Positions 2-45,170 of a stretch of DNA of 46,330 nt are shown here, piece by piece; position 1 is the stretch's first letter; each line of letters starts with the position of its first letter. Below the pieces are notes generated by a model. The model made no database searches and was not told the DNA's origin. It was given only the letters and a program-made list of their open reading frames with translations. Location: IMG/VR virus record IMGVR_UViG_3300028706_000433; one strand, given 5' to 3'. Both the position numbers and the translations under genes were made by a program. This stretch comes from a virus.

Positions 2-1102
2 ACCTACCTATCACAATGGGATTACAATCTTAGAGATGTGGAGTATTTTGGCGGATGTGTGTTATTCACCACCGAACAATTTGAGAAAGTGAACGGATAT
101 AATCCTAATTATTGGGATTGGGGATTCGAAGATGATGATTTATTTTATAGGTGTCAATTAGAAGGAATGGTAAATCACCGAACCATTGAGGGACTGGGAG
201 AGACATCGTATTTGCACTTTGATGGTGAGACACATATAGAGATACCTGTAAACCACTCTATCTCACGAACAATTAGTAAAGATTGTAAGATAGAAATAGT
301 AGTTAGGCCAGACGTGACGGGTCTCGACACATACCTAATTGGTGACCAAAGTAGAAAATTTACACATTTACCCATATTTGTTAGACAAGGATATGATTTT
401 AGGTTAGCATATGACAATTCGAGGGCATATTCAGCTACTTTTTGGAGTTGGAGAAATGATTTACATTATATATGGGCTAAAAAACAGCCAAGTGATTGGA
501 CAAAATTAACATATATGTCAAAAGATAAAGAACATTATTTAATGATAAATGATAAATATGAAGATGGTAGAACTGGAAGTGGGACTAAATTACCATTAAA
601 AGTAGATATTCCTACGAAAAGATATGCAAGAGTTCCCTATTGGATTGGTAAGGACTCAGAGGATATTCATTTTAAGGGAGATGTTGCAGAAATAAGAATG
701 GAAAATGATAGAGGTAAAACTGTATTACATTATGATTTTTCAGATGTGGGTGGTGGAGTAGTAGAGGATTTGACTGAAAATGATAATCATGGAATTATAC
801 ACGGAAATACTATTATAGAAAAAGATACAATAGATAAGTTATATGATTTACCAATTCCACACAGGAGATTTGGAAGATATAAATGTTTGAAACACGAGGA
901 TATGGGAATTGTAGATGGTAAATTTAATAGGGGTGAAAAAACTGCTATTAATGAACGGATTTATAGAACTAAGATGCAAGAAAAGAAATTAGATTATAAG
1001 TCAATAGGGTTAAATTCATCTAAGTATGAAATAACCTCTATAGATAAAAATGAAGAATTAAATTATGAAATTATTAATGTAAAGACTTTCTATGATAAGT
1101 GA
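2..1102 (+). CDS. GT7 (beta-1,4-galactosyltransferase-like) glycosyltransferase with inserted LamG/ConA-like domain, 5'-truncated
   Basis: Frame is open from base 2 (TYLSQWDYNLRDVEYFGGC...), so the true start lies upstream of the window. GT7 motifs YFGG, NGY-PN-YWDWGFEDDDL, C-terminal RYKCLKH and GLNS. LamG-like insert (YLHFDG...FKGDVAEIR...VLHYDFS). Confidence 0.85.
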   Translation, partial: TYLSQWDYNLRDVEYFGGCVLFTTEQFEKVNGYNPNYWDWGFEDDDLFYRCQLEGMVNHRTIEGLGETSYLHFDGETHIEIPVNHSISRTISKDCKIEIVVRPDVTGLDTYLIGDQSRKFTHLPIFVRQGYDFRLAYDNSRAYSATFWSWRNDLHYIWAKKQPSDWTKLTYMSKDKEHYLMINDKYEDGRTGSGTKLPLKVDIPTKRYARVPYWIGKDSEDIHFKGDVAEIRMENDRGKTVLHYDFSDVGGGVVEDLTENDNHGIIHGNTIIEKDTIDKLYDLPIPHRRFGRYKCLKHEDMGIVDGKFNRGEKTAINERIYRTKMQEKKLDYKSIGLNSSKYEITSIDKNEELNYEIINVKTFYDK

Positions 1103-1559
1103 TGTTAAGAAAATAAATTATGTTAAAAGAATTTATAAGAGAACTCCAGACAAATATTTAAATCTTTCAGAAATAGAGGGTTGGCCACGAGATGAGGATT
1201 GGATGAATGATGAACCTCATTTAAATCATGGTAAAATGAGAAGAAGGGGAACGGTTTGTCCGTGTGTATATGAGAAATATAGTGAGGTGACCAATAGAGC
1301 TATTGTAAATTATATTTCAGAACTGTTAGAATCCGAAATTTCAATTGTACTTTCTATCGTGGATGTTGAAGGAGTGAAATCGATGATAGATGGAGTACAT
1401 ACCGCACTGGCATATGATAAACTTGGAATAACAGAAGTTCCAGTTTATATTAATAGTAAAAGTTTACCATTTGGAGTTTGTTATAAAGATTATGTAATAG
1501 ATAAGAATGGAAATAAAATTAAAATAAACCCCGTGAGTGGATATTATGAGTCTAAGTAA
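1092..1559 (+). CDS. Hypothetical protein with a ParB/Srx-like C-terminal motif
   Basis: MIDGVHTALAYDKLGITEVPV resembles the ParB/Srx DGxHRxxA...LG...VPV motif, with Thr in place of Arg. Overlaps both neighbours. Confidence 0.45.
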   Translation: MISDVKKINYVKRIYKRTPDKYLNLSEIEGWPRDEDWMNDEPHLNHGKMRRRGTVCPCVYEKYSEVTNRAIVNYISELLESEISIVLSIVDVEGVKSMIDGVHTALAYDKLGITEVPVYINSKSLPFGVCYKDYVIDKNGNKIKINPVSGYYESK

Positions 1560-2655
1560 AGAATATGATGTATATTATACTACGGGTGGATTACATTTCG
1601 TAGGTGGTGGGTCTGATATATGGGTGAATGATTGGATAGAATTAATATCTAAAAGATTAGATGTAACTCCAGTTTTATGTATTGATAGAATTAAGATTGG
1701 ACATGATTCTAAAGAGTGGTATGAAGATTTTTATAAAGAAAAATTTGGTCATTTAAAAATAGTAGAAGTTAATAACGAATCTGATTTTGATGCAGAAGCT
1801 GACCTATATGTTATATGGGCTAGAGCAGAAATTAAAGATTTGTTCATGGAAGTAGTAAATAACTGTCGTAGATTAAATATTCTACACGGATATTATAGAC
1901 CAAAAGATATTATTGTAAAAAACTTCCAAAAATTATATTCTGTAGTTATTCACGTCACGGTAGAATTATCTTTAAATGCTGGATTTACTTTAAATTTACC
2001 TAAATTACAACATTTTTCAGGTACTATGGAGTGGGAAAATGAAGTTAGTAAACATGCAAAACATGTAATATGGATTGGATTAGATAAAATACCATTACAC
2101 GATAGAAGGGATTTAATCGATATACCAAATTATTATGTTTTTAATAAAAACTTACCAATTATGGAGAGTGATGTTGTTGCTTTTACTTCCAGATGTGAGA
2201 CAAGAAAGTGTCCTCATTTTATAGATACGGTAGATTCTTTGGCATACACTAATCCTAAAGATTTATGGTGGTGGACTCACAATCTTGGATATAAATTTGA
2301 AAAAACCAGAGTTGTACAATTTAGATATAGTACTTTAGATAAATTCTTTAAATCTAAACGGTGGGGAATCAGTCATTCTTCGTTTGTTAATGAACCATTT
2401 GGATATAGTATATTTCAGGCAATTGATTATGGAAAAATACCAATTTTAAATAGAGATTGGTGTAAGGATATAGAGTATCCTTTTAGGTCATATAGTAAAA
2501 GTCAATTTGAGAAACAAGTAAAAACAATAAAAGGAGTTTCATATCAAGAACGTAATGATATATTGGAAAATTTAAGAACCAAGTTAAATAATCTATATAA
2601 TAATCCCATAATTTGGGCAAATCAATATTTATCTATATACAATGGGAAAGATTAA
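1546..2655 (+). CDS. GT4-like (GT-B fold) glycosyltransferase
   Basis: N-terminal GGGSDIWV loop; C-terminal EPFGYSIFQAIDYGKIPIL matches the GT4 EX7E motif with Gln as the last residue. ATG 1546 preferred over GTG 1537. Confidence 0.6.
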   Translation: MSLSKEYDVYYTTGGLHFVGGGSDIWVNDWIELISKRLDVTPVLCIDRIKIGHDSKEWYEDFYKEKFGHLKIVEVNNESDFDAEADLYVIWARAEIKDLFMEVVNNCRRLNILHGYYRPKDIIVKNFQKLYSVVIHVTVELSLNAGFTLNLPKLQHFSGTMEWENEVSKHAKHVIWIGLDKIPLHDRRDLIDIPNYYVFNKNLPIMESDVVAFTSRCETRKCPHFIDTVDSLAYTNPKDLWWWTHNLGYKFEKTRVVQFRYSTLDKFFKSKRWGISHSSFVNEPFGYSIFQAIDYGKIPILNRDWCKDIEYPFRSYSKSQFEKQVKTIKGVSYQERNDILENLRTKLNNLYNNPIIWANQYLSIYNGKD

Positions 2656-3743
2656 TGGCAGCATCAAATACAGATTTATCATTAGCTAAATTAAGAAGAG
2701 CAACCGATCCTGGAAGTGTAAGTGATTATACTACATTATCAAGATTGGGGGCAGATTGTGCAGGGGCAACTTCGGATAATGCAAACTATTCTATCGGTGA
2801 ATTTTCAATAGATTCAGTAGATAATAGTTTAACTGGATATTTGTGGGTTGATGAACAAACTTCGGAAACCTATACAATGACTTTTGGAGGAGCCGGAGGC
2901 AGATTTACGGCAAGAATAGCTAGTCAGGGTGGTAATTTTACTTGGACTACCGCAAGTTCTTCGTTTGCAGTTGCAGCCGGATCTGATTATACTGCAGTTT
3001 ACACCGCGGCAGCAATTTCAAATGTGAATGTTCCGAATGCCGTGGGTGATGGAACTCGTGGAACTTTTTATGCGGCACATAATGCTGATGTAGATGTAGA
3101 AATTAGTGGTAAATATTGGGATGATGGTGTGAGTGATGGATTTAATGACCACGCAACAAGATATAATACCGCGATAACTAAAACCGTTGGTGTAGAGGAT
3201 ACATATAATGGTACTACTATTACTTGTTTTCTACCTGAAACTCCCGTTGAGTTGGCAGATGGAGAAATAATTCCTATTGAGGATTTAGTAGTTGGTGATA
3301 AGATTAAATCATATCATATAAAGGATTTACCAGATGAAACTCTCGGTAAAGAACGGTATAGAGGATTCCATTTGGAAGAAATGAATGGGGAACTTGGTGA
3401 TACTGAAGTAAAAAATGTGTGGTTTGACTTTAATCCTGGATATTTAGATATAAACGAGGGATTAATAAAAGTTACGAGTGAACATGAATTTTGGGTTTTA
3501 AATAAAACAACAAAAGAAGAAAGTCCATACATACCACCCATTGGTAAATGGGGATTTAAGAAAGCCGCCCAATTAGCGGTCGGAGATATATTATTTGGTA
3601 AAGAAGAACATATCGAAATAGAATCAATAGAATATCATCATACCGAAGTAGAGGTTGTTAATATAAATGTAGAACCAGTAGATGTATATTTTGTAAATAA
3701 TATTTTGGTACATAATAAGGGGAGTAATTCGGATCCAAGTTAA
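2655..3743 (+). CDS. Gly/Ser/Thr/Ala-rich (virion-like) protein with C-terminal Hint (intein-like) autoprocessing domain
   Basis: TAATG overlap gives ATG at 2655. Hint domain 3225-3716: block A CFLPETPV, block B VTSEH (TxxH), block F/G VVNINVE...NNILVHN, followed by KGSNSDPS-stop. Confidence 0.8.
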   Translation: MAASNTDLSLAKLRRATDPGSVSDYTTLSRLGADCAGATSDNANYSIGEFSIDSVDNSLTGYLWVDEQTSETYTMTFGGAGGRFTARIASQGGNFTWTTASSSFAVAAGSDYTAVYTAAAISNVNVPNAVGDGTRGTFYAAHNADVDVEISGKYWDDGVSDGFNDHATRYNTAITKTVGVEDTYNGTTITCFLPETPVELADGEIIPIEDLVVGDKIKSYHIKDLPDETLGKERYRGFHLEEMNGELGDTEVKNVWFDFNPGYLDINEGLIKVTSEHEFWVLNKTTKEESPYIPPIGKWGFKKAAQLAVGDILFGKEEHIEIESIEYHHTEVEVVNINVEPVDVYFVNNILVHNKGSNSDPS

Positions 3744-3789
3744 AATAGGTTTTAAATGTTATTAATAAATAAATTGGTTATACAGAGAA

Positions 3790-5373
3790 ATGAATAAACA
3801 TAAACTAGCGATAATAGTTCCATATAGAGATAGGCAAAAACAATTAGATGTGTTTTTACCTCATATGAAAAAGTTTTTGTCAAGAAAAGCACAACAAGAG
3901 TGGTATGGTGGTTCTTCTGCCGTAGAGGCAAATTATTTAGATTATGATATATTTGTAATAGAGCAAAAAGATGAATATCCTTTTAATAGAGGAATGTTAA
4001 TTAATAGTTGTGTTAAATTGTTGCCAGAAGAATATGATTATTTTGTTTTCCAAGATGTGGATTTATTACCAATAAATGATAATATACATTATGGTTATGA
4101 AGAACATCCAGTACATATGTCATCAAAGTTTGTAAAAAAAATTAAATTACCATATTTTGAGTATATAGGTGGATGTTTAAAAATATCTAGAAAACAATTT
4201 GAAAAAGTAAATGGTTATTCAAATGAATATTGGGGTTGGGGATTCGAAGATTTAGATTTATTAACTCGATTGAGAGAAACTAAATTGATTAAATTAGAAT
4301 CATATTATGATACTTCTAATTTATCTGAAAACTTTGAATATGATTATGTAGGTGTATCACCTTCCAAATTGAAAATAAAAAGAAATTTCAGAGCATTAAA
4401 TTTTAGTGGTGAGAATTATGTAAAGATAGAAAATAATAAAAGAATTACAGATATAACACACGGTTCTTTTAGTATGTCGGCATGGTTTAAACCAGAATTA
4501 GATTCTAATATACATACGTGTAGTAGAAAGAACCCAATTAGTATATTATCTCGGGCAGGATTTCATACTGGAATTCAAATAGTTGATATAAGTAAGAAGA
4601 ATGTGGTTGTTAGATGTATGGGATTTACTGAAAAAAAATCTAAAGAAAAACATGATAATTTTGCACAAGAATTTGTAGTACCACTTCACAAATGGAGTCA
4701 AGTTTCTTTTATTGTTAATGATAAAGAAAAGGAAATTCAAGTATATCTTGATGGTGTTTTATTAGATGGAACTAATCAAAAAATAACTTATAAGAACGAT
4801 TTAAGGTTTTATGAAACTTCTTATTTTATTGGAGCTTCGTATGAGAAAGAAGGCAATTTTGTAGGAGATATAGCAGAACCTTGTTGGTTTGATTACACAT
4901 TAAATGAACAAGAGGTTAAATTATTATATGATAAAAATCCATCAGAACATTCTTGGACACATTTTTATGATGAACCAAGTATGTATTTTCCACTTGACCA
5001 AATATATAATAAGTTTGTTTTTGATTCTTCTTATACACATTCCAATGGTAAATTACAAAAATGTTCTGTTACAGAAAAATTACTTAATGAATTTGAATTA
5101 ACTTTGGGTGTGGAAATTAATGTACCTAAACGTTTGGATGGAGAATTTAAATGTTTGACTAAAGATAAGATAAAAAATATAAGACAAATAATGAAATTAG
5201 CAAATATAGAATATTTTGAAGATCCAGATATACAAGAGAATTTTAAATTTTTTCATGAATTGGTAAAAGATTTGAAAGTCCTTAGTGTTGAAGATGGATT
5301 GTCGAATATAGAATTTAAATTTTTGAATGAGAAAAAATATAAAAATGCAAAAATAATTGAGGTAGTGTTATGA
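3790..5373 (+). CDS. GT7 glycosyltransferase with inserted LamG/ConA-like domain (divergent active site)
   Basis: AIIVPYRDR, FNRGMLIN, FQDVDLLP, NGYSNEYWGWGFEDLDL. LamG insert (FSMSAWFKP...QVYLDG...FVGDIAE). C-terminal DGLSNI. Confidence 0.85.
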   Translation: MNKHKLAIIVPYRDRQKQLDVFLPHMKKFLSRKAQQEWYGGSSAVEANYLDYDIFVIEQKDEYPFNRGMLINSCVKLLPEEYDYFVFQDVDLLPINDNIHYGYEEHPVHMSSKFVKKIKLPYFEYIGGCLKISRKQFEKVNGYSNEYWGWGFEDLDLLTRLRETKLIKLESYYDTSNLSENFEYDYVGVSPSKLKIKRNFRALNFSGENYVKIENNKRITDITHGSFSMSAWFKPELDSNIHTCSRKNPISILSRAGFHTGIQIVDISKKNVVVRCMGFTEKKSKEKHDNFAQEFVVPLHKWSQVSFIVNDKEKEIQVYLDGVLLDGTNQKITYKNDLRFYETSYFIGASYEKEGNFVGDIAEPCWFDYTLNEQEVKLLYDKNPSEHSWTHFYDEPSMYFPLDQIYNKFVFDSSYTHSNGKLQKCSVTEKLLNEFELTLGVEINVPKRLDGEFKCLTKDKIKNIRQIMKLANIEYFEDPDIQENFKFFHELVKDLKVLSVEDGLSNIEFKFLNEKKYKNAKIIEVVL

Positions 5374-7181: not shown

Positions 7182-7197
7182 GAATGAGGAGATAAAC

Positions 7198-10666: not shown

Positions 10667-12132
10667 AAAAACTAAAAAAGAGTAAAACATTTTGTCCATT
10701 TCCATTTATGAACCTAAACAGTAATACTGATGGTTCGGTAAAGATATGTTGTGCACAAAATGAAAACTTACATATAAAGAAAGATGATGGAGAAACTTTT
10801 AATTTATATGAGGATGATATAGACGAGGTTTGGAATTCTAAACATATTCAAGATATTAGGAAAAGACTTCTAAATGGAGAACAAATACAAGAATGTAATG
10901 TGTGTTGGAATATAGAAAATGCAGAAAAAGATTATGGTGGTCATGATGCACCAAAAAGTACGAGAATAGATAGTATAGAAAGTTATATGGAAAAAGATGG
11001 TATTTTTAATTGGATGGAAGATACACTTGAAAAAAATATACAATCCACTTTAGAATTTGGTTGGGTAAGAGAATCGTTAAAAAGTTTAGAACTTAGATTA
11101 GGAAACCATTGTAATCTAACTTGTAATATGTGTTGGGGTTATAGTAGTAGTAAGATTAATTCAGAGAGATTAACCTTATTAAAGAATAGGGATAAAACTA
11201 TGCCACCGTGGTTGTTTAATATGTGGTATCCAGAAGAATATAATATATCTAAAATTGATATGATGTGGCACGAGAATCCGAAATTCTTAGAAAATTTTAA
11301 AAAAGTAGCACCTACATTAAAACGATTGTATGTTACAGGCGGTGAACCAAGTATTATTGCAGCAAATACTAAAATTATAAATCATTTGATAGCTATAGGT
11401 AACAAGGACTGTCATGTATCTTTTACAACAAATTTGACAACTTGGAATATAGATTTGTATGAGAAATTAGAATTTTTTGACAAGAGTGAGGTTCAGGTTA
11501 GTATAGATGGTTATAAAGAATCTCAAGAATATATAAGATATGGTTCAACGTGGAGTGTAATAGAAGATAATTTTAAGAAGTTAATTCAATTACCAGATAA
11601 AGTTAGAATACAAATCTATACAGTATTTCAAGTATATAATATGTTTGAGACTTATAAAATGATGAAGTGGTTAGATTCTTTACGAATAGATGGATTGTTA
11701 AAAAGAGAAGTTGGGTTTTATTCTATATTGATAGACCAACCATTATATTTAAGGACGAATTTTATGCCTTGGGAAATTAGAGATAAGGCAATGAAACTAT
11801 ACAGAGAATTTTATGATTATTCAACATATGATAATGAATTTTTAGATTTTCATGGAACGGCCAATAAAATCATTTCTTATTTGGAAAGTAATTGGGAGCC
11901 ACATAAAAGTTATGGAAAGTATTGTCAAGGTGTAGAACAGACAGAATTAAACCAACGGAAGATGTTTTATCAATATACACGGTATATGGATAAAGTTAGA
12001 AATACGAGTTTTTTTGAAACTTTTCCAGAATGGCGGGAGTTAAAAGAAGAATTTAATGAAGCTCAAGATGAACATTTAATGACACCTAATTGGTGGATAG
12101 ATGATAGAATACCAAAGAATAAAAGAAAATGA
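10651..12132 (+). CDS. Radical SAM protein with N-terminal twitch domain (start codon non-canonical or mutated)
   Basis: HCNLTCNMC and VTGGEP. The conserved KSKTFCPFPF segment lies upstream of the first ATG (10708). Frame is open from 10630; ATC at 10651 follows a GGGAG RBS. Confidence 0.85.
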   Translation: MTFDIEKLKKSKTFCPFPFMNLNSNTDGSVKICCAQNENLHIKKDDGETFNLYEDDIDEVWNSKHIQDIRKRLLNGEQIQECNVCWNIENAEKDYGGHDAPKSTRIDSIESYMEKDGIFNWMEDTLEKNIQSTLEFGWVRESLKSLELRLGNHCNLTCNMCWGYSSSKINSERLTLLKNRDKTMPPWLFNMWYPEEYNISKIDMMWHENPKFLENFKKVAPTLKRLYVTGGEPSIIAANTKIINHLIAIGNKDCHVSFTTNLTTWNIDLYEKLEFFDKSEVQVSIDGYKESQEYIRYGSTWSVIEDNFKKLIQLPDKVRIQIYTVFQVYNMFETYKMMKWLDSLRIDGLLKREVGFYSILIDQPLYLRTNFMPWEIRDKAMKLYREFYDYSTYDNEFLDFHGTANKIISYLESNWEPHKSYGKYCQGVEQTELNQRKMFYQYTRYMDKVRNTSFFETFPEWRELKEEFNEAQDEHLMTPNWWIDDRIPKNKRK

Positions 12133-21276: not shown

Positions 21277-21284
21277 TAACTAAC

Positions 21285-31224: not shown

Positions 31225-31236
31225 AATGGAGTTAAA

Positions 31237-32149: not shown

Positions 32150-32160
32150 AGGAGATAACT

Positions 32161-32943: not shown

Positions 32944-32945
32944 TT

Positions 32946-33833: not shown

Positions 33834-34704
33834 AGGCGGGAACGCAATTCCAGATTTGGAAGTTGTAGAATTTTGGAAAGAATCGTTGAAGGATTTAACT
33901 GATGTGATTATCACAGACCATTATTCTTTCCCTAAAAATGGAAAGTTATTTACAGATAAATTTGATGAATATATTAAAGCATCAAAGTTAAATAATTTAA
34001 AAGGATTAGACACTTATGAACATAGGTCTTTTGTAGCAGGAACAAGTCAAACATTTGATAGTTTTTGGATGAGAAATCACGATAGAAGATTTAGATGTTT
34101 TAAAGGAGAATTCTTTTATCATAAAGCAAATTGGAAGAAGTTTCACACATGGTGTTATTTGGAAGATGAAGATATTCTACCTGATGATGCAGTTGTTATT
34201 AGTTTGCCATTTTCAGATTATGGTATGGAACATCCAAAGATGAGAGAAATATTAGATGAGTGTGAAAGATGGGGAGTACCTGTATTGATTGATTGTGCTT
34301 ATTATGTGATTGGAGAAGGAATAAACTTTGATTTCACAAAGTACGACTGCATTGAAGATATAACATTTAGTTTAAGTAAAGGTTTTCATCTTTCTAATAG
34401 AATACGAGGTGGTATAAGGTATACGAAAAAGTATTATGATGATAATATACATATTATGAATGAGTGGAATCAATACAGTCATTTATCCGCACATCTTGGT
34501 ACTAAATTGTTATCACACTTTCCTCCAGATTTTAGTGTGAACAAATATAAGAATAAACAACTTGAATTTTGTAAAGAGAATAATTTGAAACCAAGTGATT
34601 GTGTTATATTTGCTTTCGGTGGAGATGAATATAAAGAATTAAATAGAGGAACGGAAGTTAATCGTTTGTGTATATCATATCAGATTGGAGATAAATTAAA
34701 ATGA
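33811..34704 (+). CDS. PLP-dependent fold-type-I-like protein (aminotransferase-like)
   Basis: LIDCAY (Asp pairing with the pyridine N), FSLSKGF (Schiff-base Lys), RIRGG. Confidence 0.55.
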   Translation: MNITEKYRGGNAIPDLEVVEFWKESLKDLTDVIITDHYSFPKNGKLFTDKFDEYIKASKLNNLKGLDTYEHRSFVAGTSQTFDSFWMRNHDRRFRCFKGEFFYHKANWKKFHTWCYLEDEDILPDDAVVISLPFSDYGMEHPKMREILDECERWGVPVLIDCAYYVIGEGINFDFTKYDCIEDITFSLSKGFHLSNRIRGGIRYTKKYYDDNIHIMNEWNQYSHLSAHLGTKLLSHFPPDFSVNKYKNKQLEFCKENNLKPSDCVIFAFGGDEYKELNRGTEVNRLCISYQIGDKLK

Positions 34705-35948
34705 ATATAGGATTTATAGGATTGGGAAAACTTGGTTTACCATGTGCACTGGTAATAGAATCAAGGGGTCATAAAGTAGTAGGTTATGATCCTTCAGACC
34801 AAGTTAAAGAAATTATTGATACTAAAAAATTAAAGTATCAAGAAGTTAATGCACAAGGATTTTTAGATAAAAGTAAAATAGAAATAAAGAGTGTAGAAGA
34901 AGTAGTAAAACATTCAGAAATTATTTTTGTTCCAATACAAACACCACACGGTGAAAAGTTTGAAGGAACAACTAAAATACCAGATGAGAGAGAAGATTTT
35001 GATTACACTTATTTAAAACAAGGCCTTATGGATTTAGATGAGGAGTTAATAAAACAAAATAAGGAAATGGTAGTTATAGTGATTTCTACAGTTCTACCTG
35101 GAACAATTCGTAGAGAAATTTTACCAAATTTAAGTACTTATATTAAATTATGTTACAATCCATTCTTTATTGCTATGGGAACAACCATTGAAGATTTTTT
35201 AAGACCAGAAATTATTTTATTTGGTGTTGATGATAAAAAGGCCGCAGAAAAGGCAAAGAAATTTTATAGAACAATAAATCACGCTCCATTTTATGAAACA
35301 ACTATTGAGAATGCAGAATTGATTAAAGTTACTTATAACACTTATATTGGAACTAAGATAGCATTTGTAAATAACGTAATGGAAATGTGTGAACATTTAC
35401 CAAATACAAATGTAGATGATGTGATGAACGCCTTAAAAATGTGTGACGTTAGGATTATTTCAGATAAATACTTGAGTGGTGGTATGGGAGATGGTGGTGG
35501 TTGTCATCCACGAGATAATATAGCTTTGAGTTGGTTGAGTGATAAGTTGGGTGTGAGTTTTAATTGGTTTGATAATATAATGAAACAAAGAGAAGTTCAA
35601 ACTGAAATGTTTGCAGATTTGATAGAAGAACATTATGAAGATAAGAAAATTTGTATTCTTGGAAAGTCATTTAAACCTGAAACTAATCTCACGGTAGGAA
35701 GTCCAGCAATACTTTTAAAAAACATATTAGAAGATAGAGGACATGAGGTTTTTAACTGGGATCCTCACGTAGATGATTGGGATATAGTTTTAGATGAAAA
35801 ACCTTGTTGTTATTTTATAGGAACTAAACATCCAGAGTTTATAAGTTTCCCATATGAAAAGGGTTCGGTGATTATTGACCCTTGGAGATATATTTCAGAT
35901 ATAGATGGTTGTACAGTTATTCGATATGGTGATAATATAAATGATTGA
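34701..35948 (+). CDS. UDP-glucose/GDP-mannose dehydrogenase family protein
   Basis: IGLGKLG, VPIQTP, STVLPG, YNPFF, AELIKVTYN, GGGCHPRD (catalytic Cys), LGKSFKPET. Confidence 0.9.
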   Translation: MNIGFIGLGKLGLPCALVIESRGHKVVGYDPSDQVKEIIDTKKLKYQEVNAQGFLDKSKIEIKSVEEVVKHSEIIFVPIQTPHGEKFEGTTKIPDEREDFDYTYLKQGLMDLDEELIKQNKEMVVIVISTVLPGTIRREILPNLSTYIKLCYNPFFIAMGTTIEDFLRPEIILFGVDDKKAAEKAKKFYRTINHAPFYETTIENAELIKVTYNTYIGTKIAFVNNVMEMCEHLPNTNVDDVMNALKMCDVRIISDKYLSGGMGDGGGCHPRDNIALSWLSDKLGVSFNWFDNIMKQREVQTEMFADLIEEHYEDKKICILGKSFKPETNLTVGSPAILLKNILEDRGHEVFNWDPHVDDWDIVLDEKPCCYFIGTKHPEFISFPYEKGSVIIDPWRYISDIDGCTVIRYGDNIND

Positions 35949-37029
35949 CCAATTACACCCACAACGACTTGCTTATAATGAAGTTAATTGGGTTACTGGT
36001 AAGTTAAACGTAGTTTTTGAAAAGGTATGTAAAAATTCTATATTTCTTGTAAATGGGGGTGGATTTCAAGAATATGATATAGATTATTATAAAAGTTTAA
36101 TAGATGGTGGTTATGTTAAAGATAATGATTTATGGATATTTTGGATGAAAACTGAATCACATGCACCAAATGAAATTAGAGAATTACATACAGTATGTGA
36201 AGAATTGAAATTAGATGAAAGTAAGGTTGTTTTTATTAATGGTGATTTAGATTTAGATAAAAATTATGATACAAAATTTAATTGTATTGGGTTTCCTTGG
36301 TATTTTTTACATGATAAAGAAAATTTGATAAAAAATATAGGATATAATCCATATAAATTTGTAAAATATGAGGATAGAGAAGTATTACCAAGTAAAAAAT
36401 TTATAAATTTAAATGGAAATCATACTAAACCAAGAGAATATATTTTAGATAAGTTGGAGAGATTCAAAAATCTTGGATATATTAGTGATTTATCAAAAGG
36501 AATTACTTTAGATGTATCTTTAACTCAAAAAGAACTTTTAGAAAATTTGGCAGGTGGGAACGCTCGTTTTTTAGACCCCAATAAAAATGTATTGGATTTT
36601 TTTCATAATGATTCTTATTTTAGTATCGTACAAGAATCTAGTGGTGGGTGGGAAGCATTTGACCAAGATAAAATAAGTGCATATTTTACTGAAAAATTCA
36701 CTAAACCATTATATTATGGTCAACCGTTTATTCTAATTGGTTTTAAAAATTCTTTGAAGTTTTTAAACGAGATGGGATTCAAAACTTATAATGATATATT
36801 TGATGAATCTTACGATGAAATGGAAACTTGGGAAGAAAGAACAAGGGCAGTTTGGAAAGAAATAGAAAGAGTGTTGACTTTACCAGATAAAGAATTTTAT
36901 GAAAAATTAGATAAAGTGCAAGAAAAGGTTATTTATAATCAGAAGAGATTTTTTGCATATGATGGATATGTAGATGACCTTATAACTAAATTGATGAAAC
37001 TCTATGAAAAAACAAGTATATCTGTTTGA
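35941..37029 (+). CDS. Uncharacterised GT-B-like family protein, copy 5
   Basis: YFSIVQES...YFTEKFTKPLYYGQPFILIG...GFKTY..IFDESYD. Shares YEDREVLPSKKF with copy 4 (YKDREVLPTKKF). Confidence 0.55.
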   Translation: MIDQLHPQRLAYNEVNWVTGKLNVVFEKVCKNSIFLVNGGGFQEYDIDYYKSLIDGGYVKDNDLWIFWMKTESHAPNEIRELHTVCEELKLDESKVVFINGDLDLDKNYDTKFNCIGFPWYFLHDKENLIKNIGYNPYKFVKYEDREVLPSKKFINLNGNHTKPREYILDKLERFKNLGYISDLSKGITLDVSLTQKELLENLAGGNARFLDPNKNVLDFFHNDSYFSIVQESSGGWEAFDQDKISAYFTEKFTKPLYYGQPFILIGFKNSLKFLNEMGFKTYNDIFDESYDEMETWEERTRAVWKEIERVLTLPDKEFYEKLDKVQEKVIYNQKRFFAYDGYVDDLITKLMKLYEKTSISV

Positions 37030-38917
37030 AATAAGTGATATTACAGAAAACCAAGTTAAATTACCGTATAGCACTGGTTTAATTTGGGGATATTGTGCAT
37101 TAGATGACAAAATTAAATCAAATTATGAGTTAGGTGGTTGGATTTATTATAGAGATGTAATAGATAAAATTATGAATAAAATAGATAATCCTTCAGTCGT
37201 TGGATTTTCAAATTTTGTTTGGAATACTCATATAAATTATAAATTAGCCAAAAAAATAAAAGAAAAGTATCCAAATTGTCTTATAGTTTTTGGTGGGCAG
37301 GGCACACCTAAGTCAGATAAAGTTTTTAATTTTTTTATAGAACACCCGTATGTGGATATAACAGTTCACGGTGAAGGAGAGATTTCATTTAAAGAAATAT
37401 TACTTGAGAATTTAAAAGATACCTCAAATTTTAAAAATATTCCCGGAATTACTATTAATGGTGATAAATTTATCACTACATCATCAAGACCAAGAATTAA
37501 AGATATAGATTCAATGCCAAGTCCATATTTAGATGGGTTATTTGATAGTTTAATTAAAATTAAAGACCATAATTATGACTTTGAAGCATGTATTGAAAGT
37601 GTTCGTGGTTGTCCGTATCAATGCACATTTTGTGAAATAGGAGATAAATATTTTCAGAAACTCACAAAACAATCAAACGAAAAAATATTTAAAGAATTAG
37701 ATTGGATATCTAAAAATAAATTATTATTTTTTTATAACGCAGATTCTAATTTTGGATTATTTCCTGAACATCTTGACCAAGTTAGATATATGACAGATTT
37801 AAAGAAGAAAACAGGTTATCCAGATAATATTAGAATAGATTGGGCAAAATCTAGAGCAGATAAAGTTGTTGAATTGGCTAAATTATTGACTAAGGCTAAA
37901 ATGATGAAAGGGATAACGATTGCATTACAGTCCAGGAATCCTGAAGTGTTAAAGGCAGTAAAAAGAAAAAATGTAGATGATGGTAAATTAAAAGAATTTT
38001 TTGATTTATATAAAGATGAAAATTTGGTTAGTTATGTTGAAATAATTCTTGGATTACCTATGGAAACTGTTGAATCATTTAAAGATGGAATTTTTCAGTT
38101 ATTAGATTTGGGATATAATGATTATGTTGATATTCATCCATTGACGGCATTACCCAACACACCATTTTTTGACGCCGAATATATTAAGGAATATGATATT
38201 GATATTGTGGAAACTACTCCAGCATTTTATCATCATGAAAATGCAGATTTATTGAAAAATGAAAGTGAATATATGGTAGTTGGTAGTAAGACAATGACAA
38301 GAGAACAATATATTGAGGCTAGTGTATGGAAGTGGTTATTTATGTTTGGTTATAGTTTAGGGCATTTAAAGTATATATCAAGATTTATAAAAACTGTTAA
38401 GAAAGTATCTTATAAAGAATTTTATGAAAAATTTTATACATATATGGTTGATAATCCTAATAGTTTTATGGGAAAACAATATTTGATAACAAAAAATACT
38501 TTAGGTAAAGTTTTAAGAAAAGAAACTTTATGGGGAAGAGCTGTAGATTTAACTGGAAATTTTTATTGGAATTTTGAAGAAGCCACCGCTTTAGAGGTTG
38601 CATTAAATAGAGATGAGTTTTTTGATAGTGTTAGAGAGTTTTTAAATCAATTTAATTTAAATGAGAAAGTTGAAAATGATATAATAGAATTTCAATCTTC
38701 GATAATAAAGAATCCACTTGAAAAATATCCTATGATGAAAAGGTTTGATTATAATATAAAAGATGTTCTATTCAACAATAAAAAATTAACAAATAGTGGT
38801 TATAATTATCAGTTTGATTCTGAAAATTATAAAAATGATGTTAGAGAATGGGGTACAAAGGCTATATGGTGGGGAAGAAGAAATAAAGGTTTTGAGACAG
38901 TAGTTTATGAAAAATGA
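37004..38917 (+). CDS. B12-binding radical SAM protein
   Basis: PYSTGLIWGY, VVGFSNFVWN, IVFGGQG, VHGEGE; VRGCPYQCTFC. Confidence 0.88.
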   Translation: MKKQVYLFEISDITENQVKLPYSTGLIWGYCALDDKIKSNYELGGWIYYRDVIDKIMNKIDNPSVVGFSNFVWNTHINYKLAKKIKEKYPNCLIVFGGQGTPKSDKVFNFFIEHPYVDITVHGEGEISFKEILLENLKDTSNFKNIPGITINGDKFITTSSRPRIKDIDSMPSPYLDGLFDSLIKIKDHNYDFEACIESVRGCPYQCTFCEIGDKYFQKLTKQSNEKIFKELDWISKNKLLFFYNADSNFGLFPEHLDQVRYMTDLKKKTGYPDNIRIDWAKSRADKVVELAKLLTKAKMMKGITIALQSRNPEVLKAVKRKNVDDGKLKEFFDLYKDENLVSYVEIILGLPMETVESFKDGIFQLLDLGYNDYVDIHPLTALPNTPFFDAEYIKEYDIDIVETTPAFYHHENADLLKNESEYMVVGSKTMTREQYIEASVWKWLFMFGYSLGHLKYISRFIKTVKKVSYKEFYEKFYTYMVDNPNSFMGKQYLITKNTLGKVLRKETLWGRAVDLTGNFYWNFEEATALEVALNRDEFFDSVREFLNQFNLNEKVENDIIEFQSSIIKNPLEKYPMMKRFDYNIKDVLFNNKKLTNSGYNYQFDSENYKNDVREWGTKAIWWGRRNKGFETVVYEK

Positions 38918-40025
38918 AATACGAGAGGTTTGTAAAAAGTTTGGTAAATTAATAGGTAATGATATAAGAGATACATGGGATCTTTTAAATGATTCAAATA
39001 TAATTTCAAATTTAACCGATGATATAGTACATAGAGTTAATAACGAATCAAATTATTATTTATTAATAGATTGGATAACCGATTCAGATGTAAAGAGATT
39101 TATTTCTGATTTAGAAAAAGTTATAGATTTACGAGGAATAAAAAAAGATAAAGTTATGGTTTTAATTAATAGAAATCTTTCATTACCACAAACTGAAATA
39201 AAGTTTGTAAGTACTGATTATTTAATGTATAAGGTAGGATTACATTTTAATAGACAAGATAATATTAAGAGGTTTTATAAAGATTTAAGTTTTTTAACTG
39301 ATAAAAGAGAAAAGAAAATTTTATCGTTAAATAGACGATTGAATAATTGTTGGCATAGAGTATTGTTATTAGCATTATCAAGTAAACATAACTTATTTGA
39401 AACTAATTATATCACCTATAATTTAGACCCAGAGTTTGATTCAGAAGTACCACCATTAAATGAATTGATAAATTTAACCGCTCAACCAAAAGGAAGTTAT
39501 AATTTAATATCACAAAAAGAATTATATTCAGAGATGGATAAGTTAGTAAAAAATAAAAAAAATGTATATGAATCTTTTTCTCATGAGAGTCCTGGATATA
39601 TTTTTACTGTTAGAGATGAGACGGTTGATATTTATAAGAGTAGTTATATCAGTTTAGTTACTGAGACGTTTTTTTATGAGGCTGATTATATTATAACAGA
39701 AAAAGTTTATAAACCTATTATACATTATCATCCATTTATAGTTTTAGGTAGTCCATATACTTTAAAACATATGAGAAGTATAGGATTTAAAACATTTGGA
39801 GATTTTTGGGACGAGAGTTATGATGAAGAAGAAAATAACGATAAGAGATTTGAAAAAGTTTTTAACTTATTGATGAAATTTGATAAAATGCCTATTGAAG
39901 AATTACATAAGTTATATATTGATATGATTCCTACATTAAAATATAACTATGATTTGATAGTTGAACGAGGTAGTATGAAACATTTAACCGAGAATTTAGA
40001 AAAAAATATAACAGAGGAAAAATGA
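38907..40025 (+). CDS. Uncharacterised GT-B-like family protein, copy 6
   Basis: LSLNRR..HR...YISLVTET...IITEKVYKPIIHYHPFIVLG...GFKTFGDFWDESYD. Confidence 0.55.
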   Translation: MKNEIREVCKKFGKLIGNDIRDTWDLLNDSNIISNLTDDIVHRVNNESNYYLLIDWITDSDVKRFISDLEKVIDLRGIKKDKVMVLINRNLSLPQTEIKFVSTDYLMYKVGLHFNRQDNIKRFYKDLSFLTDKREKKILSLNRRLNNCWHRVLLLALSSKHNLFETNYITYNLDPEFDSEVPPLNELINLTAQPKGSYNLISQKELYSEMDKLVKNKKNVYESFSHESPGYIFTVRDETVDIYKSSYISLVTETFFYEADYIITEKVYKPIIHYHPFIVLGSPYTLKHMRSIGFKTFGDFWDESYDEEENNDKRFEKVFNLLMKFDKMPIEELHKLYIDMIPTLKYNYDLIVERGSMKHLTENLEKNITEEK

Positions 40026-40231
40026 AAATAGAATTACCAAATAATAAATATGTTATAACAGAAAGAGATATTTGTGATATTCTTATAGCATATAACAATC
40101 AGGACTATGATTGGATTTTAGATTTTTTTGAAACGTTACATCCGATTGAACATATGGATGAATTAGAAACATATACGTTTGAACAAATAATAGCTAATGC
40201 GGGGATAGTATCATATCAAGGAAAAAAATAG
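40022..40231 (+). CDS. Hypothetical protein, 69 aa
   Basis: ATGA overlap with the upstream gene; acidic; no recognised motif. Confidence 0.6.
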   Translation: MKIELPNNKYVITERDICDILIAYNNQDYDWILDFFETLHPIEHMDELETYTFEQIIANAGIVSYQGKK

Positions 40232-40926
40232 CTTTCTGTGGTGACAGTTTTGTAGTAGATTTTAGTCCCCTGAGTTGGCCGTCGAGAATAGTTAAAAAAT
40301 ATAATGCAGAAATTTTATGTAAGGGAACATCTGGGTTATCTTTATTTCATGCCTACGAGAGAATGATTGAAAATATTAAGGAGGCCGATTTAATAATATT
40401 TTGTATCACAGATCCAAGTAGGTTATCTAATCCATTTAAATTACCAATTACAATTAATCAAGGGATGGATAAAAATGCATTTATTGAAATACAAGATGAT
40501 AAGCGATATTCTCATAGTCATGGAATATTACCGTCAGTATTTAATTATAAGGAATTACAAACTGCAGTAAAATATTATTATAAAATGTTATATGATGATT
40601 CACATATGGAAACAACACATAGAGGATTATTGAGAGAAATAGAAAGTGTAGTGAAGAAATATAATAAAAAATGTATATTTTTAAAATGTTTTTCAGAAAG
40701 TTTTCCTGATTATATACCAGAAAATGTTGTTTGGGGAAATTTATATTTGTATGAAGATATTTCTATGAAAGAACCTAATTTTGATTCGAACACTATATCA
40801 AAGGATGATAGGAAAAATCATTTAAATGATAAAAATAATTATAATATGTATTTGTTTTTAAAAGATATTATAGACAGAGACGATTTCACACCGAGAGAAA
40901 TAAAGATGGAGAAATATTTCGAATGA
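40213..40926 (+). CDS. SGNH/GDSL-like protein (start codon non-canonical or mutated)
   Basis: KKIAFCGDSF (block I) lies about 45 codons upstream of the first ATG (40363). Frame is open from 40198. Candidate starts are ATC 40210, ATA 40213 or a mutated ATG (AGG) at 40219. C-terminal KNHL. Confidence 0.65.
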   Translation: MSRKKIAFCGDSFVVDFSPLSWPSRIVKKYNAEILCKGTSGLSLFHAYERMIENIKEADLIIFCITDPSRLSNPFKLPITINQGMDKNAFIEIQDDKRYSHSHGILPSVFNYKELQTAVKYYYKMLYDDSHMETTHRGLLREIESVVKKYNKKCIFLKCFSESFPDYIPENVVWGNLYLYEDISMKEPNFDSNTISKDDRKNHLNDKNNYNMYLFLKDIIDRDDFTPREIKMEKYFE

Positions 40927-41705
40927 AAACCCTATTAACAAGTGGTTGTAGTTTTACTGAAGATAGACCAGGTGGATTTTCTTGGCCAAATCTCATATCT
41001 AAACAAATGAATACAAAATTAGTTAATCTTGGTTCTGGTATGAGTGGAAATTCCTTTATAGCAAAACAGTTAATAAATACAATATCCCATCATTATATGG
41101 ATGAAAAAGATTTAGTGGTTGGGGTGATGTGGACTGATGTTAGTAGAAAAGATATTTTGATTAGTAGAAAAGAAACATTAAAATGGGGAGAGATTAAAAA
41201 ACAACCCAGTAAGTTATGGTTAGATCAAGTTATTGATGATAAATTAACATATCCAACTGTGACGATGAGTGGAGAGGCTTATAAAAAATCAAAAGATATC
41301 AATAGTTTATGGATGAAAAGTGGGATGCATAATTGGGTAGAAGCGGATACAGAATTTTGGAAAACTTGGTATACAGATTATTATACCTTTGAAGGAATGT
41401 TTTGGGAAACATTAGAAAATATATTGAGAACACAATGGTTTTTAGAAAAATATAATATACCATATTTTATGACAAGCTTAAATGATTTATTTACAGAAGG
41501 GTTATCCAAATACGAAGAACCAAAACATTTATATGATTTAATTGATATGGATAAGTTTTGTTTATATGATGGAACAAAAGGTATATATGAACATAATATA
41601 GAAAATAATATCCCATTCGATCATACAATACATTCTACACGAGAAGGACACGAAGCATTTTGTGCAGATGTTATTACACCAAAAGTAGAGGAATACTTTA
41701 AATGA
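40923..41705 (+). CDS. SGNH/GDSL-like protein
   Basis: LLTSGCSFT, GMSGN, C-terminal IHS..GH; clearly related to 22936..23766 (LEN/HILRxQWF). Confidence 0.55.
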   Translation: MKTLLTSGCSFTEDRPGGFSWPNLISKQMNTKLVNLGSGMSGNSFIAKQLINTISHHYMDEKDLVVGVMWTDVSRKDILISRKETLKWGEIKKQPSKLWLDQVIDDKLTYPTVTMSGEAYKKSKDINSLWMKSGMHNWVEADTEFWKTWYTDYYTFEGMFWETLENILRTQWFLEKYNIPYFMTSLNDLFTEGLSKYEEPKHLYDLIDMDKFCLYDGTKGIYEHNIENNIPFDHTIHSTREGHEAFCADVITPKVEEYFK

Positions 41706-43192
41706 AAATATTAGGAATAAACGCTTTAAACCACGATGCAGCCATAACTATGATAGAAGATGGTGAGATATTATTTGCTGCACATAGTGAACGTTATAGT
41801 GGTATTAAAAACGACCCTGATTTGAATCAACCACTATTTAGTGATTGTTTTAAATATGGTAGACCAGATAAGGTAGTATATTATGAAAGACCATATCTAA
41901 AAAAGTTAAGACAATTAAGAGCAGGTCAATACGGTGAAGTATTATCTCGTAAAAATTTACCATCTTATTATTTAAGAGATTTTGTTGGAAATACACCAAT
42001 AGAATATGTACAACATCACACATCTCACGCAGCAGCAGGTTATTTTACATCACCTTATGAAGAATCTGCAATTGTGGTTATAGATGCTATGGGAGAATGG
42101 GAAACTTGTTCTATTTGGTATGCGTATGGGGGACATTTAGAAAAACGATACTCGATAAGATATCCAAACTCATTAGGATTGTGGTATAGTGCAATGACTC
42201 AACGATTAGGATTGAAACCACAAGAAGATGAATACATTCTTATGGGAATGGCAGGTTGGGGAACGGTTGATAAAGAATTAAAACAGAATATACGGAATGA
42301 TTTTTTCAAAGAGACACCATTACCTATTAGATTAACACAAAATCTACATAGAGGATGTTTAGATTGGAATCCAACATACTACCCAGATGATGATAGTGAA
42401 CAATGGAAATTTGATATAGCCGCCAATGTACAGAGTATTTGTGAAGATGAGATATATAGTGTATTTGAATTGGCCCAAAGATTAGTTCCCGAAACAGATA
42501 ATTGTGTATATGGTGGTGGAGTTGCATTGAACTGTGTAGCCAATAGTATTATTGCAGAAGAGTTATATCCTAATTTATGGATATTACCAAACCCAGGAGA
42601 TGCAGGTAGTTCGTTAGGATGTGCGGCATATGCTTTCGGAGAGCACGTGAATTGGAAAACACCATTTACAGGTTATGATATAGGTGGCCGTTATCCAAGA
42701 AAGAAAGTATTAGATGAATTACTTCTAACTAACATAGTTGGAGTTGCAAATGGTAGAGCTGAGTTTGGGCCGCGCGCATTGGGCAATCGATCGCTGTTGG
42801 CTGATCCTCGTGGTAAGAAAATTAAAGATAAAGTGAATAAAATCAAACATAGACAAGAATTTAGACCATTTGCACCTGCAGTATTGGAAGAACACGCTCA
42901 TGAACTATTTGATATGCCCGTTAAGAAGAGTCAATTTATGCAATTTGTAGCAAAGTGTAAATATCCAAAGAAATATCCAGCTATATGTCATATAGATGGT
43001 ACTTCGAGAGTTCAAACTGTTTCTAAGGAAGATAATCTTGGATTTTACAAGTTAATTAAGGAATTTTACAAAAAAACGGGGTGTCCTATGGTATTAAACA
43101 CAAGTTTAAACATAAAAGGACAACCAATTGTGAATTCTTACATAGATGCGACTGCATTTTCTAAAAAATATGGAGTAAAGGTCTTTTCTTGA
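41702..43192 (+). CDS. Carbamoyltransferase (NodU/CmcH/TobZ family)
   Basis: HDAA, HHTSHAA, DAMGE, GGVALNC, PGDAG, GRAEFGPRALGNRS, FRPFAP, HIDGTSRVQ, LNTSLN. Confidence 0.92.
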   Translation: MKILGINALNHDAAITMIEDGEILFAAHSERYSGIKNDPDLNQPLFSDCFKYGRPDKVVYYERPYLKKLRQLRAGQYGEVLSRKNLPSYYLRDFVGNTPIEYVQHHTSHAAAGYFTSPYEESAIVVIDAMGEWETCSIWYAYGGHLEKRYSIRYPNSLGLWYSAMTQRLGLKPQEDEYILMGMAGWGTVDKELKQNIRNDFFKETPLPIRLTQNLHRGCLDWNPTYYPDDDSEQWKFDIAANVQSICEDEIYSVFELAQRLVPETDNCVYGGGVALNCVANSIIAEELYPNLWILPNPGDAGSSLGCAAYAFGEHVNWKTPFTGYDIGGRYPRKKVLDELLLTNIVGVANGRAEFGPRALGNRSLLADPRGKKIKDKVNKIKHRQEFRPFAPAVLEEHAHELFDMPVKKSQFMQFVAKCKYPKKYPAICHIDGTSRVQTVSKEDNLGFYKLIKEFYKKTGCPMVLNTSLNIKGQPIVNSYIDATAFSKKYGVKVFS

Positions 43193-45165: not shown

Positions 45166-45170
45166 TTAAA

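Follow-up and report, generated by a model that had tools for sequence, protein, structure and literature searches.

The best described counterparts of the locus reported here are the hypervariable host-recognition islands of pelagimyophages and cyanomyophages, with mean lengths of 44.6 and 34.2 kb, respectively (PMC7029224). The 13 glycosyltransferases (GTs) counted over the whole genome of S-SCSM2R were called possibly the highest number in a marine phage (PMC12801897). Glycosylation of mycobacteriophage virions was demonstrated by Freeman et al. (2023), as far as this work is cited in PMC12619734 and PMC12801897. The 46,330 bp stretch of IMG/VR virus record IMGVR_UViG_3300028706_000433 analysed here (the window) covers the last 43 kb, at the 3′ end, of an island that spans about 76 kb and holds about 75 genes, among them those for at least 15 GTs and at least 11 radical S-adenosylmethionine enzymes (rSAMs). 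The concept of such an island is already described; here it takes an extreme form in another phage lineage and includes protein families absent from deposited phages. We suggest, with a probability of about 0.45, that enzymes of the island glycosylate, in the cytosol, surface proteins of the phage's own virions, as read from the gene context.

All 47 open reading frames (ORFs) of the window are on the plus strand, and most of them abut or overlap by a few bases. GC content is about 30% and GC skew is constant at about +0.3. Pfam and NCBIfam matches agree with the first-pass annotation, made from the sequence letters, both in its picture of about 40 co-oriented and mostly overlapping sugar genes and in its count of three GT7 enzymes, seven rSAMs, five short-chain dehydrogenases/reductases (SDRs), RmlC, a thiamine diphosphate (ThDP) enzyme pair, three 2-oxoglutarate (2OG) oxygenases, a UDP-sugar dehydrogenase and a carbamoyltransferase. 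Family matches across the island are likewise consistent with the predicted viral pathway of nucleotide-sugar, transferase and tailoring enzymes. The size given earlier, about 43 kb, was set by the window edge and is an underestimate. Overlapping contigs linked by exact-protein look-ups extend the enzyme block about 33 kb upstream of the window start, to a first enzyme gene (GT9) at approximately window coordinate -33,036, a position obtained by coordinate arithmetic on two overlapping contigs. Since the contigs come from different samples and carry alternative cassettes (L020/L021 versus L019), the 76-kb figure describes one haplotype path. Such strain-level cassette swaps fit a surface trait under diversifying selection.

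The part of the island upstream of the window adds two more GT7 genes (one with a LamG domain), GT8, GT9 and another GT resembling the one at 1537, as well as four more rSAMs, three more 2OG/PhyH enzymes, three Pfam-supported Sulfotransfer_2 genes and one methyltransferase. It also codes for a DegT fragment, a GNAT protein, two HAD phosphatases, a GDP-mannose pyrophosphorylase/isomerase fusion, two more Hint proteins and a ClpP-like protease. The gene for this protease of 167 amino acids (aa; CLP_protease 80 bits, L015:12941-13444) is located about 2.5 kb upstream of the window start, amid sugar genes, and is flanked by the DegT fragment and a sulfotransferase gene.

The window DNA belongs to an uncultured marine T4-like (gp23-type) jumbo phage. 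Exact copies of its proteins are encoded on many assemblies of marine metagenomes (173 and 335 blocks in the index), and one contig, L001, which carries the last genes of the window letter for letter, runs downstream into T4-type gp23 (PF07068) and gp13 (PF26809). According to tblastn, the gp23-type capsid protein is 52-57% identical to those of Flavobacterium phage immuto, Microcystis phage Mel-JY01 and a 484-kb uncultured phage (LR756508), and only about 27% identical to those of cyanomyophages. No deposited phage matched the 3′ end of the window at the DNA level. IMG/VR contains 90 relatives of the GT7-LamG protein (3790-5373) on viral contigs of up to 251 kb. Two related genomes, G002 (216 kb) and G003 (237 kb), are rated complete, and gp23 is present in both of them and in a third relative, G001. 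The gp23/gp13 contigs, the capsid relatives and the complete genomes place the locus in a T4-like jumbo phage from a lineage of which few members have been cultured, so the earlier call of a phage-type locus stands. A cellular contig with wzx/wzy/waaL-type genes, named at the time as the finding that would speak against it, was not seen: the contigs run into gp23 and gp13 and contain no such families. The "Moraphage" (PMC12619734), considered as a possible counterpart, is of a different lineage. G002 has 239 of its 247 ORFs on one strand, which is extremely asymmetric given a genome size above 200 kb.

At its 5′ border the island is preceded by a gp46/SbcC-like nuclease gene and then a gene for a 2285-aa fibre-like protein; at the 3′ border it meets the head module. 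Syntenic islands cover about 49 kb in G002 and about 20 kb in G003, compared with about 76 kb here, and in both genomes they lie upstream of the head genes and of ORFs of terminase and portal size. The comparison of synteny proposed in the first-pass annotation has thus shown the island between fibre-like and head genes in three phages, and this position together with the variable cassettes marks it as an island of the hypervariable host-recognition type. No such island was found in the head region of phage immuto. Co-occurrence of the genes, which had also been predicted, was evaluated by tblastn of window proteins against 84 IMG/VR loci picked by the GT7 or GT-B family, and holds in about 80 related viral contigs. 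GT7 was found in 81 loci, N-twitch rSAMs in 75-80 (together with GT7 in 80 of the 84), the 1537-type GT in 52-54, a 72-aa protein in about 50, the GT-B family in 32-36 and SDRs in 16-38. Small island-like gene groups are also present in G002 far from its main island (L116-L118, at about 127-138, 148 and 164-166 kb), including SDRs, SGNH-like proteins, a short GT-B paralogue, sulfotransferase-like genes and a homologue of the 155-aa protein encoded at 1092.

Three window genes are predicted members of CAZy family GT7 (beta4-Gal/GalNAc-transferases), with scores of 65-71 bits against Pfam cut-offs of 23-27 and with DxD and WGWG-x-EDDD motifs. In the GT7 encoded at 5751, the catalytic motifs H-D-x-D and WGWGFEDDD are invariant across 13 homologues. 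The gene truncated by the window start is available in full length, with both 7N and 7C domains, at L015:15320-16720. The 72-aa protein is always encoded between two GT7-LamG genes. It is helical, lacks Cys, has no family match and is conserved at up to 67% identity across about 50 loci where the GT7 genes are only about 30% identical. Homologues of the 155-aa protein are found in G001 (66% identity) and, elsewhere in the genome, in G002, beside sulfotransferase-like genes. The GT4-like character ascribed earlier to the 1537 protein is supported by the motif EPFG...(E/Q/N)A.DYGK.P of its family; its Atlas neighbours, at 0.97-0.98, include viral clusters bearing CAP10-type GTs and T4-type alpha-glucosyltransferase (AGT).

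The six GT-B-like paralogues of the first-pass annotation (16639, 18132, 19681, 23754, 35941 and 38907) were recovered by all-versus-all BLAST and share a C-terminal domain of about 120 aa. The AlphaFold model of the 16639 product (498 aa, pLDDT 69) aligns to about 25 GT-B enzymes with Z of 8-11.1 over 265-300 residues. Ranked highest are an Actinobacillus glucosyltransferase, T4 beta-glucosyltransferase (BGT) and GT10 alpha-1,3-fucosyltransferases (8xsh, Z 11.1; BGT, Z 11.0; GT10 fucosyltransferases, Z 10.9, 10.1 and 9.6; AGT, Z 9.1), and Foldseek rows are weak but nearly all GT-B. The model therefore predicts a GT-B fold for the family. As GT10 structures tie with BGT and other GT-B enzymes, and the 498-aa paralogue family has no Pfam or PDB sequence match, the GT-B/GT10-like call is right at the fold level only. 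Profile searches against PDB sequences gave nothing useful for this family, the 1537 family or the SGNH-like family. Neither GT7-LamG nor the 498-aa paralogue had a tblastn match in 50,697 deposited phage genomes, so both families are absent from deposited and cultured phages at this sensitivity.

The 2285-aa protein at the 5′ edge of the island contains 32% Gly+Ser+Thr, no Cys and a Gly-rich tail. In G003, the end of the homologous gene and the start of the first GT gene, which is of the 1537 type, are 7 nt apart. In 48 of 79 IMG/VR loci, the 10 kb upstream of the GT7 module include a long ORF (at least 600 aa) whose Ser+Thr+Gly content is 28% or more, against a background of about 0.07 such ORFs per random 10 kb of G002; as these loci are related to one another, the 48 cases represent conserved synteny and not 48 independent events. 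At least 22 of these ORFs share the N-terminal 160 aa of the giant protein, and the remainder of their length varies, as in phage fibres.

Three proteins of the island, one in the window (2655) and two paralogues upstream of it, combine an Ig-like domain with a bacterial intein-like (BIL)/Hint domain. Profiles of the 2655 protein matched Hint domains in PDB (E 8e-7), and FN3+Hint phage proteins were found in BFVD (E 2e-14). Its model (pLDDT 68) aligns to BUBL BIL2 (Z 17.4), a bacterial intein-like domain (Z 16.6) and Hedgehog (Z 15.5), and the N-terminal domain aligns at Z of about 7 to Ig-like domains, including those of the lambda tail tube and capsid decoration domains. Ig-like domains of phages are typically displayed on the virion surface. 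The Hint domain has Cys at position 1 and His-Asn at its end, and the alignment ends with ...LVHN-K-G-S..., about eight residues after the Asn. A splicing intein was considered and rejected: the +1 position is occupied by Lys, with no Cys, Ser or Thr to serve as the C-extein nucleophile. With Cys1 and the terminal His-Asn in place and the +1 nucleophile missing, the domain should cleave or transfer rather than splice. One Hint paralogue (L019:2805-4955) differs from the other forms (350-376 aa) in its length of 716 aa, its much extended N-terminus and the roughly 180 residues that follow its His-Asn; it may be a different kind of fusion.

All seven rSAMs of the window have the CxxxCxxC motif. 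Four of them (7311, 8593, 10708 and 15381) fall into NF033640, N_Twi_rSAM, with 277-401 bits against a cut-off of 170, and have N-terminal SPASM matches in Pfam. A single-protein scan of bacterial genomes with this rSAM family gave three loci. In a Saprospiraceae metagenome-assembled genome (MAG; CBDFMS010000020, L131, 116-137 kb), an N-twitch rSAM 35% identical to that of the window is surrounded by two PhyH genes, an SDR, a GDSL gene, GT4 and GT2, and the same 10 kb encode a UbiA-type prenyl-phosphate transferase and a PMT/GT-C-TPR membrane protein. This context supports the suggestion that N-twitch rSAMs tailor sugars rather than peptides, and the UbiA and PMT/GT-C genes indicate that the cellular toolkit has the membrane machinery missing from the phage version. 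A reading of the array as a pathway for a ribosomally synthesised and post-translationally modified peptide, with rSAM/SPASM enzymes and the 72-aa protein as precursor, was rejected as the primary one. The rSAMs are of the N_Twi_rSAM family and occur in sugar loci of a bacterium and phages; the 72-aa protein is conserved, helical and devoid of Cys. KVP40-like T4-type jumbo phages have two or three distant N-twitch rSAMs (about 24% identity). In Vibrio phage KVP40 (NC_005083.2, 136-145 kb, L129) one of them is located two genes from a Glycos_transf_1 gene (KVP40.0272-0274) and another is next to a HAD gene (0261-0262).

A hydropathy scan has found no convincing transmembrane segments in the 47 window ORFs, in 47 flanking ORFs (about 94 along the 76-kb path) or in the G003 island; its few matches correspond to Rossmann beta-1 strands or core strands. 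Neither a flippase or ABC transporter nor a polymerase, ligase or membrane priming transferase was found by Pfam across the island, which thus differs from a Wzx/Wzy-type locus, just as the first-pass annotation had noted. Of the two kinds of soluble acceptor proposed there, virion proteins are favoured by the giant fibre-like gene directly upstream and by the Ig-like-BIL proteins inside the island. DNA is disfavoured: no ThyA/gp42-family gene (PF00303) was found in G001-G003, two of them rated 100% complete, while 10 of 14 control genomes matched, and more than 15 GTs are far above the needs of DNA glycosylation.

In the pathway that we propose, which would be self-contained and confined to the cytosol, the island would make activated sugars, such as 6-deoxy and 4-keto hexoses (via RmlB, RmlC and SDRs), uronic acids and, with the upstream enzymes, GDP-mannose. 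The ThDP pair may introduce two-carbon branches, B12-rSAMs may C-methylate the sugars, PhyH/2OG enzymes may hydroxylate them, and N-twitch rSAMs may perform radical chemistry; amination, O-acyl handling by SGNH proteins, carbamoylation and sulfation (the latter from upstream genes) can also be expected. At least 15 soluble GTs, including GT7-LamG, GT4-like, GT8, GT9 and the unnamed GT-B family, would join the sugars, and the glycan would be attached to the phage's own surface proteins in the infected cell. Foremost among the candidate acceptors are the giant fibre-like protein, rich in Gly, Ser and Thr, and the Ig-like domains once freed from the BIL/Hint proteins. A glycan coat that differs between strains would then cover the progeny virions and affect adsorption, stability or recognition.

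Several points weigh against glycosylation of virion proteins. The acceptor is deduced from gene context, and the adjacency of fibre-like and GT genes may be mere inherited synteny among related loci; G002 has no giant gene beside its island, though this is where its contig begins. The classical substrates of GT9, GT8 and GT4-type enzymes are lipid-linked LPS (lipopolysaccharide) or oligosaccharide intermediates, and these enzymes are not membrane proteins themselves. The T4 late-promoter motif TATAAATA is not enriched in the window (14 occurrences versus 18.7 expected) and does not occur in plus-strand gaps. Finally, the 76 kb were pieced together from overlapping contigs of different samples for which alternative cassettes exist, and several enzyme assignments come from motifs only.

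The main rival reading, which we find less probable, is that the soluble enzymes make or alter a glycan carried by undecaprenyl-phosphate or LPS core of the host, using the priming transferase, flippase or ABC exporter, and ligase of the host. The surface of the infected cell would be changed as a result, e.g., excluding superinfecting phages or avoiding grazers. This is the published reading of the nearest islands, the LPS-type clusters of cyano- and pelagimyophages (PMC7029224; PMC12801897). GT9, GT8, GT4-like enzymes, RmlB/C, UDP-sugar dehydrogenase and GDP-mannose enzymes are typical of LPS and capsule loci, and the same tailoring set is present in the membrane-linked glycan locus of the Saprospiraceae (Bacteroidota) MAG. 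Absence of membrane genes is compatible with remodelling of the host surface, since soluble GTs can act on host lipid-linked intermediates at the inner membrane face. However, the cellular counterpart has two membrane components within 10 kb and the phage none in about 94 ORFs, export by the host of a foreign, heavily tailored glycan made by at least 15 GTs is less parsimonious, and fibre-like and head genes are physically linked to the island, which also encodes Ig-like-BIL proteins.

Modification of virion proteins could also go further than a sugar pathway. We speculate, and consider it improbable, that the island builds a covalently assembled glycoprotein armour. The Hint thioester would ligate the Ig-like domain via its C-terminus to an external nucleophile, either a lysine of a virion protein or an amino sugar of the island glycan; Hedgehog and, by the title of its PDB entry, Tetrahymena BUBL presumably provide precedents for such ligation. 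GT7-LamG, possibly tuned by its 72-aa companion in the way alpha-lactalbumin tunes beta4GalT1, would extend a sulfated, carbamoylated and branched glycan. This glycan might mimic marine polysaccharides and be captured by glycan-binding surface proteins of the host.

We regard as very unlikely that the island produces a free oligosaccharide or a glycosylated small molecule, of the orthosomycin or aminoglycoside type, acting on the host or on competitors. The ThDP pair, PhyH enzymes, B12-rSAM C-methyltransferases, carbamoyltransferase and numerous GTs do recall clusters for oligosaccharide antibiotics, and all the proteins are soluble, but no aglycone-forming, resistance or exporter genes were seen across the island, its linkage to fibre-like and head genes is conserved, and the lectin-like domains of GT7-LamG and the Ig-like-BIL proteins point to macromolecular acceptors. 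The least probable reading, a highly implausible one in our view, is that the GTs decorate modified bases of the phage DNA against restriction, as T4 AGT and BGT do: it has in its favour the T4-like lineage, the alignment of the unnamed GT-B family to BGT (Z 11.0) and AGT (Z 9.1) and PF11440 (AGT) clusters among the Atlas neighbours of the 1537 protein, but that likeness is at the fold level only, with equal Z to fucosyltransferases and protein GTs, G001-G003 have no gene of the ThyA/dCMP-hydroxymethylase family, the 2OG enzymes are of PhyH and Oxy_3 types rather than TET/JBP, and at least 15 GTs with dozens of tailoring enzymes are far beyond any known DNA glycan.

Table 1. Predicted genes and gene groups of the island within the window, with the matches behind each assignment (PLP, pyridoxal phosphate; NDP, nucleoside diphosphate; SAM, S-adenosylmethionine).
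Coordinates	Strand	Predicted product	Support
2..1102	+	GT7, truncated by the window start; last 366 codons of a gene for 466 aa	Glyco_transf_7C 66 bits
1092..1559	+	155-aa protein, no assigned family	no Pfam or PHROG match
1537..2655	+	GT4-like (GT-B type) GT, 372 aa, core of the GT7 module	conserved EPFGYSIF(E/Q/N)A.DYGK.P
2655..3743	+	Ig-like beta-sandwich (~50-183) + BIL/Hint (~185-359), candidate virion-surface module	profile and model
3790..5373	+	GT7 with LamG/ConA-like domain	Glyco_transf_7N 68, 7C 65, Laminin_G_3 46 bits
5370..5754	+	two small proteins, 58 aa and 72 aa (the latter 5536-5754)	gene calls in L007
5751..7181	+	GT7 with LamG-like domain	7C 71, 7N 70, Laminin_G_3 31 bits
7311..9810	+	two N-twitch rSAMs (7311-8609, 8593-9810)	NF033640 370 and 401 bits
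9773..10666	+	297-aa protein, possibly sulfotransferase-like	no Pfam match; Atlas lead only
10708..16646	+	four rSAMs: N-twitch (10708-12132), short (12129-13154), 745-aa B12-like (13144-15381), N-twitch (15381-16646)	NF033640 277 (10708) and 312 bits (15381); weak B12-rSAM matches (13144); Radical_SAM Pfam
16639..21276	+	three tandem paralogues (498, 518, 531 aa) of unnamed GT-B-fold family	BLAST paralogy; no Pfam match
21384..22939	+	NDP-hexose 4,6-dehydratase (21384-22424) and RmlC-type 3,5-epimerase (22406-22939)	GDP_Man_Dehyd 239, Epimerase 178 bits; dTDP_sugar_isom 112 bits
22936..23766	+	SGNH-like	BLAST to 40923 E 5e-11; GCSY / GNG / DQHPS blocks; no Pfam or PDB sequence match
23754..24824	+	short GT-B paralogue, 356 aa	C-terminal ~120-aa domain common to 16639, 18132, 19681, 35941, 38907
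24821..25423	+	200-aa possible class-I SAM methyltransferase	ETGIGDG motif only; no Pfam/NCBIfam match
25434..26548	+	minimal ThDP E1 alpha/beta pair, 194 + 181 aa (25434/26003)	E1_dh 48, Transket_pyr 28.5 bits
26517..27458	+	SDR epimerase/reductase	Epimerase 140 bits
27448..28503	+	SGNH-like, 351 aa	GDSM / GQSN / HPSxxGH blocks; no Pfam match
28500..30445	+	two SDRs (28500, 29465), the first RmlD-like	Epimerase 110, 129 bits; RmlD_sub_bind 57 bits
30439..32943	+	two PhyH dioxygenases (30439, 31322; 57% identical) and 2OG-Fe(II) oxygenase (32161)	PhyH 87 and 89 bits; 2OG-FeII_Oxy_3 46.5 bits
32946..33833	+	SDR epimerase/reductase	Epimerase 99 bits
33811..34704	+	297-aa probable PLP-dependent (aminotransferase-fold) enzyme	LIDCAYY and FSLSKGF; no Pfam match
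34701..35948	+	UDP-glucose/GDP-mannose dehydrogenase family	UDPG_MGDP_dh_N 75, central domain 67 bits
35941..37029	+	short GT-B paralogue, 362 aa	BLAST to 23754 E 2e-40 and to long paralogues
37004..38917	+	cobalamin-type rSAM, 637 aa, nearest KedN5 sugar C-methyltransferases	Radical_SAM 45, B12-binding 21 bits; NF033712 234 bits, below cut-off 700
38907..40025	+	short GT-B paralogue, 372 aa	BLAST paralogy
40022..40926	+	69-aa and 187-aa proteins	no family matches
40923..41705	+	SGNH-like, paralogue of 22936	Lipase_GDSL_3 E 2e-4, below cut-off; GCSF block I
41702..43192	+	O-carbamoyltransferase (NodU/CmcH type), last island enzyme gene	Carbam_trans_C 188, Carbam_trans_N 136 bits

Among the tailoring genes (Table 1), the ThDP pair is 87-90% identical in the relatives, and another part of G002 encodes a 274-aa homologue of the 187-aa protein. 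Some of the earlier assignments have to be modified. Instead of four SGNH-like proteins, three were found (22936, 27448 and 40923), recognised by motifs and one weak Pfam match. The methyltransferase (24821) and the PLP enzyme (33811) keep their motif support, and the latter also has a profile match to aminotransferase 3if2 (E 0.046), but neither matches a Pfam family. For the sulfotransferase, the window offers the lead at 9773, whose product is related at 0.94 in Atlas to viral clusters with Sulfotransfer_2 in 14% of members and has a paralogue at L125:18215-19186; the Pfam-supported sulfotransferase genes are those located upstream of the window.

No tRNA genes were found in the window, and no Rfam family reached its gathering threshold there, the leader at 21285-21416 included. 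The longest gap inside the enzyme block, 21277-21383, is likewise without an Rfam match at these thresholds. Scans of the window for sigma-70 promoters and terminators gave matches at the chance level.

Directly 3′ of the island (43262-46330) the window contains five genes, three of which open with a common MIKLKE... leader. G002 has an 87% identical homologue of the last one (45171-), placed immediately upstream of its genes for prohead protease, scaffold and gp23, which suggests that the five genes probably code for conserved head-module proteins and are not a part of the island. Contigs with identical island genes diverge downstream of it (L002:11943-21008 versus L001:11943-21008): one continues into head genes and the other into genes for a GH108 lysozyme, a 1593-aa protein and a GIY-YIG protein. 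Either strain-level mosaicism or a mis-join in one of the assemblies would account for this divergence.

If about a third of a genome of about 220 kb is indeed devoted to one glycan, this glycan must be central to the fitness of the phage in the sea. If the glycan forms a virion coat, virus-encoded autonomous glycosylation, seen in giant viruses and, in a minimal form, in mycobacteriophages, would extend to abundant marine phages. Such a coat could likewise explain the long-puzzling "LPS gene" islands of cyano- and pelagimyophages and would bear on the modelling of phage-host recognition and particle stickiness. The island is in addition a compact source of uncharacterised enzymes, such as lectin-inserted GT7, N-twitch rSAMs, a new GT-B family and Ig-like-BIL fusions, and the N-twitch rSAM-GT pairs of culturable KVP40-like phages make a part of the question tractable.

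The glycans of Mimivirus fibrils and chlorovirus capsids consist of rare sugars made by virus-encoded, host-independent enzymes and attached to the virion surface in the cytoplasm. Those viruses infect eukaryotic hosts and use clusters of about 9-12 genes, whereas here a tailed phage has about 75 genes of other enzyme families. The Hint domains described above share their fold with Tetrahymena BUBL BIL2 (PDB 6tmm) and Hedgehog Hog (Z 15-17, rmsd of about 2 Å), as well as Cys1 and the His-Asn end; unlike these, they are joined to an Ig-like domain, lie within a glycan island of a phage and lack a C-extein nucleophile. The NF033640 family has no assigned reaction, and here its members form tandem arrays tightly tied to GT7 in about 80 viral contigs. 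In mycobacteriophages, as far as the citing papers describe them, phage-encoded soluble GTs located beside structural genes modify the phage's own virion proteins, which is the mechanism proposed here; they rely on one to few GTs and on host sugars, whereas the present island, known from its genes, has dozens of genes to make and tailor the sugars. The pelagi- and cyanomyophage islands (P-SSM2, S-SCSM1, S-SCSM2R) are similar in being large, strain-variable, located in the structural region beside fibre genes and rich in GTs, nucleotide-sugar enzymes and rSAM cassettes. In contrast to them, the island described here belongs to another capsid lineage (immuto/Mel-JY01-like), reaches about 76 kb with at least 15 GTs, forms a purely enzymatic block without membrane genes and includes GT7-LamG, tandem N-twitch rSAMs, a six-copy GT-B family and Ig-like-BIL proteins.

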